From Eledone cirrhosa (lineage: Eukaryota): a DNA stretch of 64,000 bases. The position numbers and the translations under genes are program-made. The notes beneath the pieces are model-generated. The model was given only the letters and a program-made list of their open reading frames with translations. It made no database searches and was not told the DNA's origin. Positions 20,427-56,106 of this stretch are shown here, piece by piece. The stretch is from the NCBI GenBank assembly GCA_964016885.1, contig OZ024743.1, positions 17,856,001 to 17,920,000 on the forward strand. Reading direction: 5' to 3'. Within the stretch, counting starts at the first letter, position 1; each line of letters begins with the position of its first letter.

Positions 20427-20994
20427 TATCACATAAGAAACGGAGAATCAGTGGTGGGACGAATAAAATGTATTAGATATATTACAATCGTTTCTCTGGT
20501 GACCAGCTCGAGGCATGATCGATGCAATGATCAAACCTGACTCTAAAATCGCAGGATCCTCAGATATGTCTCGATTCTACGAAGCAGAGTTTCCAAATGT
20601 CAGGTTACACCCACGGTCTTCACTCGGCAGCTTAGATCCTGTTGATTTCATTCGATGGGTGGTCAAGAATTGTATACGTCATTGGTATTTTTGGCCACTC
20701 ACAGCCGTCGTATATTTGGTTCCTTTTAATTGCCACCTGTCAAACAAAGTTGTTTCTTATATCGGAATCGTGCATATATCTGAGGATCCTGCGATATCAG
20801 AGTCAGGTTTGATTATTAAATCGATCGTGCCTCGAGCTAGTCACCAGAGAAACGATTGTTATATGTCTAATAAATGTTATTTGTTGCACCACTGATTCTC
20901 CGTTTCTTATGTGATATTATACTCTGCTCTGTAAGAGTATCGAGTGTTCAAACGGCATACCGCTTAGGGGCGCTTTAAGAATCCCACAGCAATT
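20427..20994. mobile_element. Fold-back hammerhead element, family B, in (TA)n
   Basis: Inverted arms 20427-20577 and 20765-20916. Each arm has CUGAGGA...GAGAAAC-GAUU-GU(A/U) with stem I CAUAU/AUAUG. Unpaired tail 20917-20994; (TA)n on both sides. Confidence 0.85.
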
Positions 20995-21636
20995 ATATAT
21001 ATATATATATATATATATATATATATATATATATATATATATATATATATATATATATATATATATATATATATAGAGAGAGAGAGAGAGAGAGAGAGAG
21101 AGAGAGAGAAATACATACTGAATATCGATAGAATGTAATCATACTTTGTTAATGTTTAATAAATTATCTGAACGATAAGCGTTTATCTGCACACGTTTCA
21201 CTTTTTTCTACAACTCCAACGTTGTATTTTAATACCGGAAATGTACAACTCCTTGTAGTACAACTTATTTACAAATGTTACTGATTGTTTTTTTGCACCT
21301 CGTACAGAGAGGGTAAACCAGGAATCATTCGCAATTATTGTTCTGTTCCTTTATTGATCATTCCCCATCCTCCCACAATCACGGGTATTGTAACGTCCTT
21401 GAGGCGCCACATTTTCTAAATTTCAATAAGCAGATATTTATATTTTCGTAGCTTGTCAACTACTTTTGCCGGTATATTTGATCACATGGGATGCTCATGT
21501 CTATCAATAAAGAAACGTTGTTATATTGATCTTTTACAATGATGTCAGCTCCATTTGCTTTTATGGTCCTGTAAGTATGTACAGGAAAGTCCCAGATAGT
21601 TGTTACTTTTTCTCCTTCAGTTACAGCCTCGGGGTG

Positions 21637-24240
21637 ATTATTATTATTATTACCATCACTATTGTTCTTTGAGTCTCAGTCATTAATGTTGGTTAACTGG
21701 AAAGTTTGTTGAAATGAATATCAAGCCATTACCTGCAGCCTCAGTTATTCAGGACGTATCGGAGGGTTCTTGCTGTTCCCAGCAAGCATGCCTTTTGAAG
21801 TATTCCAAAAAGCGGGGCGGGAACAATTTTCTTTAACCATCCCTGGAAACTCTTTGAGATAGTACCTAGTGCGCCTATGACAATCGGGACCACTTTGATT
21901 TCATGGCAGTTCCAAATCCTTTTTACCTCCCACTTTAATTCCTGGTATCGGTTAATTTTCTCCCTCTCCTTCTCTTGCACTCTCGTGTCGAATGGGCAGG
22001 CCACATCCACAATCAGGCACGATCATTTTTCTTGTCCAAAACCACCAGGTCAGGTCTATTGTGTTCCAGTTTCTTGTCGCTCTGTGTCCTAAAATCCCAC
22101 AGCACCTTCACCTGATCGTTTTCACCGACTCTGGCTTGTGCTCATACCACTTCTCAGAATGTGGTAAGTTGTTTACTTTGCATAGGTGCCAGTGGATCAT
22201 CCTGCCCATCACATCATGTCTCCAGCCTTTATAGTGAGTCTAGGCTAGGTGTTTACACTCAGATACAATGTGATCCACAGTCTCCTCTCTTTCTCAACAG
22301 ATCCTGCACAGTGGGCTAGCCCCCTCCTTGTAAATATGGTGTTTCAGCCACTTCGTTTTGAGTCCCATCTCTTGCGAAGCCATTAGCATTCCTTCTGTAG
22401 CCTGGTCTCCTCTTTAAGGTCTCCTCTTTTCAACCAGTTCCATGTCTGTGGATCTCTGAATTCAGTTTTCTCAAAGAAGATACTATGAAGGGACTTTTCA
22501 TGAAGGTTGCTCTTTCTCCTTGTTGTTAATTCCTCCTTGGACATCCCCGCGTCCATTGTTCTCTCTTTCAGTACAATTCTGAGCCTTGTCTCCCTACTAT
22601 CAGTCACGTATTCGTGTAGGTTGTTTTTCTCCATCTGAATACAGTCCTCTATGCCGATAAGACCTCTTCCACCTTCAGATCTCCTTAAGAAGAGTCTATC
22701 GACATCACTCCTTTTGTGGAACATGTTGTAGATAGTCAATAGCTTCCTAGTCTTCCTATCCATTTCTATTTCTTCAGTAACATTCCATCTCAGAATTCCC
22801 GCACTGTACCTCATAATAGACACAGCTCGGGAATTTACTGCACGTATGACATTCCTACTGTTCAGATGTGATTTTAATACGCTCCTTACTCTCCGAATGT
22901 ATTCAGATCCTATCAATTCCTTCATTGTTTTTTTCTTGGTGTTATCTGCCTCCAGAACATCCAAATACTTGTATCCTTCTTCAGTGTCAATTACCTTTAT
23001 CATCTCACCTGTTGGTACCTGGATTCCCTTGATTCTGCTCAATTTACCCCTCTTCATCACAAGGACTCCACACTTACTAATACCAAATTGCATACATATA
23101 TCATTGCTGAAAATACGGACAGTGTCAACGAGCACATCCAACTCCTTCTCACTCTTCCCGAAGAGATTAAGATCGTCCATGAAGAGGAGGGTGATTGATG
23201 GTAAGCTCTGCCTTTCCCAACTTGTATCCTATTCTCAATTTCGCAGTATAATGTTCAGGGGCATCAGGGCAAGGACAAACAACAGAGGGGAGAGAATATC
23301 TCCCTGGAATATACCTCTCTTGATCTTCACGCCTCCCAAGGATTCTCCAGCTGATGTTAACTCTGTTTTCCAGGACTTCATACTTTTGCTCAACATATGT
23401 CTTATGTTATCTGCCACCTTGAAGATCTCTAGGATTTTGTTGATTCAAGAATGAGACACCATGTCAAATGCCTTTTTGTAGTCTATCCATTCCATAGCAA
23501 GACCAGTGTGTCTCCTCTTGCTATTCCTCATTACCATCTTATCAATAAGTAACTGGTCCTTTGTATCACGGGACTTATTTCGGCATTCTTTCTGTTCTGC
23601 CGGTAACAAGTCGTGTATGTGGAGGTAATGGTAGATTTCTCAGACACAATGCTTGTCAGCAGTTTCCACATTACGGACAGACATGTGATAGGTCTATAGT
23701 TGGTAACATAACCCTTGATTCGGACTTTCATTACCAGAAATGTGGTACATTTTGTGAACCACTCTGGTACCTCACATGACAGCAAGCAGTCATTGAACAT
23801 GGCTGTCAGTTTCGCGTGGAGGCATGTTATGTTTTTTAATCCAATACTCCTGCACAACATCTGGGCCTGGTGATTTCCAGTTGGTTAATTTTTTGGTCTG
23901 CCCCTTAAGAGTTTTAACTGTGATACTCAAATCAGTTTGTTTGTGTATCTGGCACTAATCTCCTTTTGTACTGTCTCAACCTACACTACCTGGTCATAAT
24001 GTTTAACATCCTGCTCCCATATTCCTCTCCAGAATGTCTCAGTTTGTTCCGCTTCAGGGATCAAGTCGTTGCCTCTTTCTTTCCCTTCAAGCAGTCTAAA
24101 CAACATCTTCTGGTTGTTGTCAAACATGCGGTTCTGTCTATACTGACTGCCTCTGCTCTCGTATCGCCTAATTTTTGCACTCTTTGCTACAATGCGTGTC
24201 TTCAGTTCCTCTATGATAATATTAAGCTTCTTTCCTCCTA
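21637..24240 (-). mobile_element. R4/Dong-type RT-RLE LINE, family A, 5'-truncated and disrupted
   Basis: NYRPITCL, GIFQGDILSPLLF, FMDDLNLFGK, GGRGLIG, then RLE-type DVACPFD...VPIVIGALG; flanked by (TTA)n. Confidence 0.93.
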
Positions 24241-24299
24241 GTTTTATTATTATTATTATTATTATTATTATTATTATTATTATTATTATTATTATTATT

Positions 24300-54535: not shown

Positions 54536-54869
54536 AAGCAACACCAACTAAATATACCAACTGTTTTATACTCTGCAGTTTTTGGTTTTTATCACTTCTT
54601 ACTATCCAATTCTATGTTTTATACATCTTTCTCATATTTTTTTATTGTCTCCAAATCTCAATTGATTTACCTATTCTATAACGTCCCTCCTCTATTTTCT
54701 CCAGAACCCTCTTTCGCCTACTTCCTCTGGCCTAATTTCATACACAAAGGTTAGAATTTGCTGTGTAGATTTCACTTTGAACGCCTGACCGGCTCCACCC
54801 ACTGCATCCATTGCACTACAGGCAAGTTAAGCCATCAAACTGCCATGATAGACTTAATTGTGTTTACAA

Positions 54870-55110
54870 GAAATTTTGACCAATCTTCTTGACAACTATA
54901 ATCTTCCCATAAGAGGAAGTACCCCTTGAACAGTTCGGCTATTTATTTACCAGGCTAAACATTCTAATTTAGTCCAGAAATAGCTGTCGAAACGGCTTGA
55001 GCTCTGCCGTCGGGGTCATACATTTTCCTATTTCCCACTCTACTACCCTAAGTATTGAGTACTCTGGTGCATTATGGTCCATCTGGTTTCTTACCACAAC
55101 TCCTTCGTTA
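54870..55110 (+). mobile_element. Family C direct unit with hammerhead and tail
   Basis: ACCCC-UUGAACA-G..CGGCUAUUU/AAAUAGCUG..C-GAAACGGC-uuGAGCUCu-GCCGUC-GGGGU at 54921-55016; GAGTACTC at 55057. Confidence 0.85.
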
Positions 55111-55148
55111 TATATATATATATAAATATATATATATGTATATATATA

Positions 55149-56106
55149 TAGAAGTGGTTACACAACAGTTAGTTCACCATAACAAGAACAATTGTTTCCC
55201 ATTAGCGGATCCTCAGCTCGGAATGGGCATGGTTATAGGAACAGGAAGGACAATCGTACGAAGGCGAATGCGCAGAAACCCGGTCAATTCACACAGGCAA
55301 TACTAGACTGCGTGCGAGAGGTGTAAGGGAAATAACTGAGAAAGTCCGAAAAGTTTTTAGGTTGAAAATAAAATTACAGAGAATCAGTCCGGAGCCTTGT
55401 AGTTATGCAACAGGTGTTTGGCGACGTGTGGACAACGTGTGAAAATTCATTTCTCCTGTTTAGGCAATCACTATTGCGTAATTTCTTTAGAATAATTATT
55501 CTTTCGTCAATGCATAAGCCACTCGTCGGATTTCCCCTTGCTTATGGCTTGGACGTAGTGATGGCTTTCCATTGAATGGAGTAGTCTATACTTGAGTCCT
55601 TGAGGGACCATACGTGGCTCGCGAGTTTCGTGGATGAACGTCTGTCCGGGTACCTGAAGGTAGACTGTTGGTTCAGGAAACGTCCCTTAAATCGGAACCT
55701 CCAGCATGCCCACATAGGATTTGACCTCCTGTGGTTCGTTTGGTCGGTTGGAAGTGACCACAGCTTCATAAATTACAGCTGGTGTGTTGCATTGCTGTTG
55801 AAGGGGGCAAGCTTCAGGCTTGCGGCAAGAGCACCATGCTGGGGTGTTGCTCCTAGGGCTGCTGGTGATGTGTGCCTTCATGTTCTTCGGGCAGGAGTAT
55901 CCTAGTTTAACTTTGTGTCGGTTAAAGATGGAGCGGTATTTATGACATATGGGAAAGTGTTTATCTAAGAGGGCTAGACATTGTTTTCCTACATTAGTTT
56001 TAATGTTGAGTGAGAAGGGAGAAGAGAACCAGATATTCTACCTAACTCGTCCCATGGACTGAGTGCTCTACCACTACGGATATTACCTTCCAGTGTTCCA
56101 CCACTA
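55149..56106 (-). mobile_element. Penelope-like GIY-YIG fragment with family D hammerhead and inverted tail
   Basis: CSCRKPEACPLQQQC...VIY...YVG...FKGR...LASHVWSLK. Hammerhead CGAG-CUGAGGA...GAAAC-AAUU-GUU-CUUG at 55183-55220. The tail lies on the + strand at 56036-56105. Confidence 0.85.

Follow-up and report, generated by a model that had tools for sequence, protein, structure and literature searches.

The two fixed ends of fold-back Penelope-like insertions in Eledone cirrhosa each lie just before a leader hairpin

The window analysed here is a stretch of 64,000 nucleotides of the Eledone cirrhosa genome (positions 17856001-17920000 of contig OZ024743.1, in the 3.0-Gb assembly GCA_964016885.1). 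It holds four families of fold-back insertions, A to D, which by their protein marks are assigned as 5'-truncated insertions of Hydra-clade Penelope-like elements (PLEs), a group of retrotransposons. The insertions have two fixed ends: the breakpoint B, where the tail-less arm ends and relative to which positions are counted, and the tail end T. In all four families, B is a UA located 6-8 nt before a first hairpin (hairpin 1) and T is a UA located 6-8 nt before a second one (hairpin 2). We propose that the reverse transcriptase (RT)-endonuclease of the element binds both leader hairpins and primes two complementary DNAs (cDNAs), one per cut (TA)n end, at the UAs of B and T, a reading to which we give a probability of roughly 0.6.

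A sequence-only reading of the window had described these fold-backs and supposed that both ends of an insertion are fixed. Coordinates, (TA)n flanks and common breakpoints were all re-found in the window sequence. Family A copies share the stop ATATCGTA (5503-5510 and 51094-51101), family B copies share GTGATA (49198-49203 and 20911-20916), and family C copies stop at the same base (34878 and 38111). Inverted and direct arms agree at 148/148 positions in A, 125/139 in B and 128/143 in C, and the tails are 87 nt in A, 78 nt in B, 79 nt in C (measured from the TA at 38478-38479) and 64 nt in D. The two ends hold genome-wide, as the endpoint tally of each family gives two sharp 3' end sites, each followed by (TA)n, beyond the window too. 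An unselected sample of 1.064 Mb combined 464 kb around and including the window with 200 kb each from contigs C1, C2 and C10. In this sample, 39 of 40 family C matches end at the two sites (15 at B, 24 at T), as do 27 of 29 in family A (13 at B, 14 at T) and 7 of 9 in family B (4 at B, 3 at T), the other two family B matches belonging to a subfamily with a different tail. Among the best 30 genomic matches of family D, for which the query ended at B, 15 stop at B, 13 reach T and 2 do otherwise; 30 genomic matches to a B-ended query of family B fall roughly half on each end site, by eye. Further loci (L numbers) were retrieved by searches of the same genome, together with 77 metagenome loci of related elements found with an alignment query; a metagenome scan with a single protein as query had found no relative. 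A DNA search of the genome with the AT-rich arm and tail of family A returned zero matches, the query itself included, and subfamily A2 and a sequence pattern were substituted for it. The fold-back shape is general in this genome, because a de novo scan of 2,096 segments bounded by (TA)n, in 1.94 Mb, gave 215 fold-backs and 34 tail clusters.

The two ends are also coupled. Our pairing set consists of 92 two-armed A-D insertions, after four duplicate rows were dropped and unpairable or untypable arms excluded. A B-ended arm faces a T-ended arm in 88 of them, two T ends face each other in three and two B ends in one, where independent choice would give an expected B-T share of 0.50 (P=6e-22). 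No head-to-head pair mixes families. Of the 88 pairs, 37 have a B arm that extends further 5' than its partner, 19 have a T arm that does so, 26 have arms of equal reach and 6 are unclear; the 23 pairs of the unselected 1.064 Mb alone give 13, 4, 3 and 3. In 14 insertions the T arm does not extend upstream of -21, and there are seven solo tail-less B copies, plus L233 and L236. Junctions could be tabulated in 83 rows, with overlaps of 1-7 nt in 33, longer overlaps in 3, blunt joins in 16 and inserts in 31. Two antisense cDNAs, one per target end, are the most likely origin, as they would give both longer B arms and tails.

What the two ends have in common is the hairpin that follows each of them. 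The tails of unrelated families share a motif composed of RCTC, an upper stem, a loop, the upper stem again, a 2-nt bulge (UU, UA or UC), GAGY and RCU. The four families had been called dissimilar, and they do lack long nucleotide likeness, but their open reading frames (ORFs) are mutually 30-54% identical and their tails carry this common motif. With a descriptor drawn after the tails were inspected, hairpin 1 is found in 17 of the 33 tail families of the de novo scan (the 34 clusters minus one pure (CA)n row), against 0/33 in upstream and 2/33 in reverse-complement controls. Cluster representatives carry the motif in 14/33, compared with a shuffle mean of 0.11 and maximum of 2, and the search works with the 2-nt bulge only. 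The lower stems are ACTC/GAGT in 8, GCTC/GAGC in 7 and GTTC/GAAC in 2.

A held-out set was formed by the 57 of the 77 metagenome loci whose match reaches an ORF end. The motif occurs in 8 of 17 regions that follow a hammerhead and in 16 of 29 that precede an ORF, whereas the reverse complements give 1 and 0, the shuffle means are 0.27 and 0.85, and ORF windows give 9/511. Two GAGYRCY motifs are present in 17 of 20 leaders, in which a hammerhead is followed by an ORF start, versus 3 of 22 other loci (P=6e-6), spaced 54-77 nt apart and 12-55 nt ahead of the ATG. By eye, two of these three exceptions also reach an ORF start, and the third is located beyond a short TA run. For 46 hairpins chosen by the lower stem only, after 4 chance matches outside leaders were removed from 50, the first upper pair is kept across a 2-nt bulge in 45 (C-G in 28, U-A in 17), while the other registers give 1, 1 and 4 of 46. 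RNAalifold on a MAFFT alignment of these hairpins yielded no pairs, the 5' halves being misaligned, and the pairs were counted by anchoring instead. A TA starts 5-9 nt upstream in 42/46, versus a background of 0.38.

The second hairpin, behind T, was predicted ahead of the pattern searches, although single copies were known before in C (L203), A2 (L325) and D. It is present in 8 of 10 pattern matches of A1 (tandem copies L419-L427), in 5 of 11 of family B (L412-L415 and L417) and in 7 of 9 tandem loci of family C, and a hairpin-2-like form, with a 1-nt bulge and a long loop, follows T in 29 of 30 D loci (L271-L300). The order of the element is hammerhead, B, hairpin 1, T, hairpin 2 and ATG. 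The distances from TA to hairpins 1 and 2 are 7 and 8 nt in A, 6 and 6 in B, 8 and 6 in C, and 6 and 7-8 in D, uncertain by 2 nt since the target itself is TA. B and T each precede their own hairpin, and therefore tail length tracks the hairpin period. Terminal copies carry no hairpin 2. The metagenome copies L335, L336, L339 and L354 likewise have ends that map just ahead of a hairpin. At L409:1430-1620, a family B tail passes at T directly into a family A tail, at equivalent TA-before-hairpin positions.

By motif match, the hairpin also occurs in related coral and sea-cucumber elements. In the consensus sequences available from Craig 2021, inspected by eye, Hydra-2_Amil and Hydra-2_Ajap carry it once each at the 3' end, Hydra-1_Ajap carries it twice ahead of the ATG and Hydra-1_Crog has a variant; Hydra-1_Amil shows no motif at its 3' end, and Hydra-1_Obim ends before the motif site. 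Fold-back families at L031:4920-7250 and L063:1599-5090 have tails of ~60 nt in which the hairpin is absent. The ORFs of these two, the hairpin-less families that were checked, are by eye Neptune-like (CxxxxCxxC linker, CCHH) and Penelope/Poseidon-like, so that the motif looks clade-specific. A CAATGCYTCAA-like word is common to several 34-60 nt tails and is perhaps another clade's own signal.

According to our model, the hairpins would act as RNA and bind protein, and a ribonucleoprotein (RNP), perhaps with a dimeric protein, would bind hairpins 1 and 2 on one RNA. The protein would cut both strands of (TA)n, one RNP serving both target ends. The target 3' TA would pair with the template UA ahead of each hairpin, and two cDNAs would start, the B-primed one at the UA before hairpin 1 and the T-primed one at the UA before hairpin 2, the T-primed cDNA displacing the B-primed one. 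Synthesis of each cDNA would end either at random or where the RNA begins, which is probably the transcription start in the pseudo-long terminal repeat (pLTR). The cDNA 3' ends would then join via 1-7 nt of microhomology or a template jump, with repair filling in. The product would read (TA)n, inverted B arm, direct T arm, tail and (TA)n, with the hairpin period setting the tail length. A further-reaching version, which we advance tentatively and at somewhat less than even odds, is that the RT-endonuclease is a telomerase-like dimer whose halves dock on the two hairpin copies, that each half sets its template UA 6-8 nt upstream, that both microsatellite break ends are reverse-transcribed at once and that the tail is the ruler.

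Several points weigh against two-ended priming. The chief one is that PAc, the Poseidon element of Anolis carolinensis, starts reverse transcription in vitro with neither a strand difference nor primer homology, as far as the main account of Frangieh 2024 (PMC11167929) describes. Support for the two-cDNA model is genomic throughout. The arms of one insertion are each other's nearest match in 12/18 cases in A, 9/28 in C and 4/13 in D, and the near-perfect palindromes (26/88) are equally explained by snap-back of a single cDNA. The held-out loci include near-duplicates of one family. D hairpins have a 1-nt bulge, and D hairpin 2 has a loop of 82 nt and a broken first pair. In 4-5 more distant terminal/tandem pairs (L334, L338, L342 and L397), the ends could not be placed near a hairpin, and 16/33 tail families, D among them, lack the motif under the strict descriptor, the two that were checked belonging to other clades. 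Finally, G-U pairs outnumber A-C in the stems by 20 to 10, which tells RNA from DNA folding only weakly.

That asymmetry matters for the best-surviving alternative, which we consider unlikely, in which the hairpins are read as DNA: GIY-YIG would nick a tandem or head-to-head cDNA intermediate at the TA before hairpin 1 on one arm and before hairpin 2 on the other, and the ends would be joined to (TA)n. Besides the weakness of the G-U excess, it is favoured by both sites being TA, the same as the target motif, and by the statement in Frangieh 2024 (PMC11167929), citing Pyatkov 2004, that the D. virilis tail is needed for endonuclease recognition. Such resolution alone, however, leaves the 88/92 B-T pairing and the 14 nearly tail-only T arms unexplained; hairpin 2 is absent from terminal copies, and in vitro, with an RNA template, PAc is reported to start RT at both sites (PMC11167929).

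Slightly less probable again is the model of the sequence-only reading, in which a single T-primed cDNA folds back at a point that varies and then copies its own strand until it meets a stop or a cut at B. Equal arms (26/88), the 19 pairs with a longer tail arm, blunt junctions (16/83) and the 148/148 palindrome of family A in the window agree with it. A fixed second-strand stop needs the tail arm to be the longer, however, and the B arm is longer in 37/88 pairs and in 13 versus 4 of the unselected sample; nor can snap-back give the 885-nt B arm of D with its bare tail, or the solo B copies. A T-primed fold-back cDNA cannot yield a longer B arm and a B-primed one cannot yield a tail, and plain snap-back is therefore disfavoured. 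It may still be a minor route for part of the insertions.

Lower still we place the idea that the hairpins serve another leader role, such as translational autoregulation or RNP packaging, and that the nearest UA able to pair with a (TA)n primer alone sets B and T. Hairpin 2 does lie only 12-55 nt before the ATG, and in these AT-rich leaders TA occurs in 38% of random 5-9 nt windows. The leaders, however, have many UAs, yet only those 6-8 nt before hairpins are used, in all four families, and tail length follows hairpin spacing from 64 to 87 nt. It is very improbable that the fold-backs are artefacts, whether of assembly or of long reads, or that two separate insertions make up each of them: some large nested zero-tail palindromes exist, but an artefact would not pair B with T in 88/92, the arms differ by 1-10% with no (TA)n between them, and B-to-tail continuity is repeated in independent public runs, which do not span the D insertion of the window. 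Near-perfect palindromes of 1.5-3 kb with (TA)n runs and nested elements inside them, at L121:1321-2943, L117:1990-3491 and L036:9835 to L037:2845, are either hairpin-driven duplications or assembly artefacts.

Each family leads to an RT-endonuclease. The Penelope-like identity and (TA)n targeting proposed earlier are borne out, and A1, B, C and D are each the 3' end of an ORF with RT and GIY-YIG. Coding sequence lies upstream of the family end in C10 for A1, in the window (45462-47097) and L207-L208 for B, in L012, L199 and L203 for C, and in L193-L198 and the window for D. All four have a single ORF in which GIY-YIG is C-terminal to RT, the N-terminus at the other end being of the KNIP/KDIP type, and full-length relatives are mostly 620-760 aa. 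The linker CxCx5C is seen in C (L199), D (L193 and the window) and B (L207). The endonuclease lacks CCHH, and CxxC and CxH flank its E and N (by eye; for A1, a motif match). DKT takes the place of DKG in A, B and C, and RWR, one change from RWK, is found in all four. The (TA)n insertion feature of the Hydra clade is present in A-D. Pfam returned no meaningful family for four ORF fragments.

The earlier suggestion of Naiad-like proteins did not hold, as the C-terminal endonuclease, the CxCx5C linker and DKT are Hydra-clade marks. Naiad shares the (TA)n targeting and the tails, but as described in Craig 2021 (PMC8557442) its endonuclease is N-terminal and it has no canonical hammerhead; a Naiad identity was rejected on ORF order and tandem read-through, and A, B and D have the hammerhead form. 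The idea of small non-coding units mobilised in trans fared no better, because ORFs are linked to all four families and tandem copies read from the tail to the ORF start; most short copies are truncations. For family D, 29 of 30 leader loci have the tail end upstream, and A1, B and C tandems likewise continue from tail into leader and ORF start. The 5' leader therefore begins with the tail, a feature shared with the D. virilis Penelope. The insertions have the unit of endonuclease-bearing (EN+) PLEs, with a tandem pLTR, an inverted 5'-truncated copy and a one-sided tail that also precedes the ORF. A non-LTR (non-long terminal repeat) retrozyme or other non-autonomous unit was rejected, since ORFs are linked and the arm 5' ends do not lie at the hammerhead cut. 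At L325:440-1090 (minus strand), an A2 tandem has both hairpins and a short ORF start followed by 3' untranslated region (UTR), an ORF-deleted unit; subfamily A2 may be non-autonomous, this locus being the only hint.

A putative type I hammerhead, recognised by form, is present in the pLTR of A and D, and family B has such a form with a long stem II. The earlier description of four hammerhead families agrees with the form of these three and fails for C, in which CUGANGA is found in 0/52 long arms. Rfam detected nothing in the window at the gathering level, hammerheads included, and only (TA)n artefacts at a relaxed level, and it gave no hammerhead match in four loci of families B-D. Arm 5' ends lie within 5 nt of the hammerhead cut in 1/41 D, 0/53 A and 0/14 B arms. 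A pivot at the cut was rejected, as no peak of arm 5' ends is seen there. The pivot is not freely variable either, as had been assumed: 25/35 unselected C arm 5' ends lie within -70..-49 of B, and ~20/29 A2 arm 5' ends lie near -186 (by eye, with an unbiased query). Both clusters sit at what we take to be initiator-like sequence. They may be transcription starts, because of this sequence and because the pLTR of Penelope is described as having a promoter (PMC2377424). An extra G, considered as a copied cap, is seen at 25/31 A2 starts, but that query began with G, and an unbiased query gave 2/5 exact starts. At L433 and L434, ~90 nt past T, the C leader is read just beyond the ATG and then restarts at the C 5'-end cluster, and L414 is the family B counterpart; a short transcript could account for these restarts, as could a template jump that is favoured at this point.

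Within the window, the A1 insertion has a B-ended inverted arm at 50805..50952 (minus strand; mirrored hammerhead core 50863-50904), matching the direct arm over its whole length. The direct arm runs up to B at 50953..51101 (plus; minimal type I hammerhead form 51001-51048), and the 87-nt tail at 51102..51188 (plus; hairpin 1 at 51107-51126) ends at T, followed by (TA)n. The arms of 50805-51100 are identical while the B-ended, tail-less family A copy at 5377..5510 (plus; hammerhead core 5411-5451) differs by 8%; the A1 insertion is either young or has undergone conversion between its arms. In family B, the B-ended inverted arm at 20427..20768 (minus) is the longer one, reaching -339, and the direct arm at 20777..20916 (plus; hammerhead form with long stem II, 20780-20861) begins at -137 and leads into the 78-nt tail at 20917..20994 (plus; hairpin 1 at 20921-20945). 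A diverged copy of the B subfamily with a different tail end lies at 20172..20372 (plus). The long family B copy at 45462..49203 (plus), ending at B (49203), has a broken RT and C-terminal GIY-YIG ORF (45462-47097) and a 3' UTR of ~2 kb, and its inverted partner occupies 43684-45466.

The family C insertion has a B-ended inverted arm at 38111..38315 (minus) and, at 38322..38558 (plus), a direct arm to B (38479) with the tail at 38480-38558, a degenerate hairpin 1 (38486-38509) and no hammerhead core. The C mini insertion at 34878..34971 shares the breakpoint as described earlier but has only part of the tail, a 49-nt B arm being fused to the final 44 nt. A T-ended C copy at 54868..55109 (plus; hairpin 1 at 55037-55060) adjoins D across (TA)n, and a broken RT-thumb-GIY-YIG fragment at 40410..41419 (plus) closely resembles the family C ORF of L199. 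For the D insertion (55149-56104), the inverted arm stands and the supposed direct arm does not. Its B-ended arm of 885 nt at 55149..56035 (minus; hammerhead form 55187-55216) codes for the ORF 3' end with linker and GIY-YIG (56037 downward) and is joined via TTCTA to the 64-nt tail (56041-56104), junction and tail spanning 56036..56104 (plus; hairpin 1 at 56045-56064). A solo T-ended D mini copy lies at 37593..37730 (minus; hammerhead form 37690-37719). Summed word depth in the public contigs of two runs, X1 and X2, is several-fold higher at 55151-55214 and 56047-56104 than over the ORF; this excess at the 60 nt before B and the tail agrees with an abundance of very short D copies and gives no copy number. 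At 54868-56148, and also in L136, L171 and L197, different families are stacked in one another's (TA)n flanks, and therefore every insertion leaves two new targets.

Other repeats in the window include 94-nt inverted arms, 93% alike, at 17185-17480, centred on a 102-nt (TA)n and unrelated to A-D. An abundant repeat of ~200 nt, resembling a short interspersed nuclear element, is partly tandem and partly in inverted pairs (3879-4118, 13022-13423, 17790-18000, 18526-18628, 31844-32038, 32560-32712 and 44623-44948). Broken ORFs of non-LTR retrotransposons, belonging to two or more further kinds and labelled by eye as L1/Tx1-like and RTE-like, lie at 9667-11421 and 28655-31069 (plus) and at 22386-28507 (minus).

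In L1 twin priming, one RNA is copied into two cDNAs, both primed by the target, and microhomology joins the resulting inverted 5' segment to the rest. The second L1 primer lands randomly and the arms do not overlap, whereas here the arms do overlap and both proposed starts are fixed, lying 64-87 nt apart and close to the 5' end of the RNA. Among the closest known systems is the Hydra clade of Craig 2021 (PMC8557442), which has the same order of RT and GIY-YIG, CxCx5C, DKT, CxxC/CxH, no CCHH, the (TA)n target and an inverted copy with a one-sided tail (Fig. 2 legend); its pLTR holds a type I hammerhead, matched in form by A, B and D. That work describes an inverted 5'-truncated copy, a one-sided tail of 30-40 bp and (TA)n targeting, and proposes endonuclease-mediated resolution. 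Tails here are instead 64-87 nt (up to ~186 in other motif-bearing families), C has no hammerhead and B has a 2-kb 3' UTR. The portions consulted of Craig 2021 name no leader hairpins, though the consensus sequences given there carry the motif. For PAc, Frangieh 2024 (PMC11167929) reports that both target strands are cut and extended in vitro, that RT starts at two internal sites delimiting the tail, that the hammerhead is dispensable and that a dimer is predicted. PAc has an AT-rich target, as our families do, and it has two RT starts bounding the tail and extension of both strands, as we propose for our families from their genomic end signature. PAc belongs to another clade, and its starts lie within one AC-rich stem-loop inside the ORF, lacking primer homology and strand difference, whereas the starts proposed here are UA sites of the 5' leader, each followed by its own conserved hairpin copy and one per target end. 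The inverted arm is not accounted for in the main account of the PAc work (PMC11167929).

The D. virilis Penelope (Schostak 2008, PMC2377424) also has tandem units, a pLTR promoter, inverted terminal repeats of variable size and a short repeat found both where the ORF starts and at the 3' end; this short repeat is 34-37 bp, and the portions consulted describe neither a twin-hairpin rule nor a (TA)n specialism. Non-LTR retrozymes (PMC7229834; bioRxiv 10.64898/2026.07.22.740005) are, like some copies here, short hammerhead-bearing units linked to PLEs, but as presented there they form head-to-tail arrays of ribozyme-bounded monomers, not head-to-head arms.

The one-sided tail with an inverted 5'-truncated arm is a known pattern, and in this respect the elements are ordinary Hydra-clade PLE copies. 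A literature search in which hammerhead papers were word-searched, with subscription journals, Repbase reports, the supplementary figures S1B and S2C of Frangieh 2024 and most supplementary figures of Craig 2021 outside its scope, found neither twin leader hairpins nor twin priming for PLEs. Within that scope, the twin-hairpin rule and the coupling of B and T appear new, while the inverted arm with tail (PMC8557442) and two internal RT starts (PMC11167929) have been published. The origin of the one-sided tail and inverted arms of PLEs is left to future work in the texts of Craig 2021 (PMC8557442) and Frangieh 2024 (PMC11167929). A short, covarying, clade-wide motif at a fixed distance from each end makes the mechanism directly testable, and it gives a rule for the true borders of a repeat class abundant in invertebrate genomes. 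For the retrotransposons most closely related to telomerase, the twin hairpin is a candidate cis signal, and it points to a possible way of integrating DNA with both ends defined. If true, moving the hairpins would reprogram both insertion ends, and the tail, the inverted pLTR and (TA)n targeting would have a single explanation in double-ended retrotransposition.

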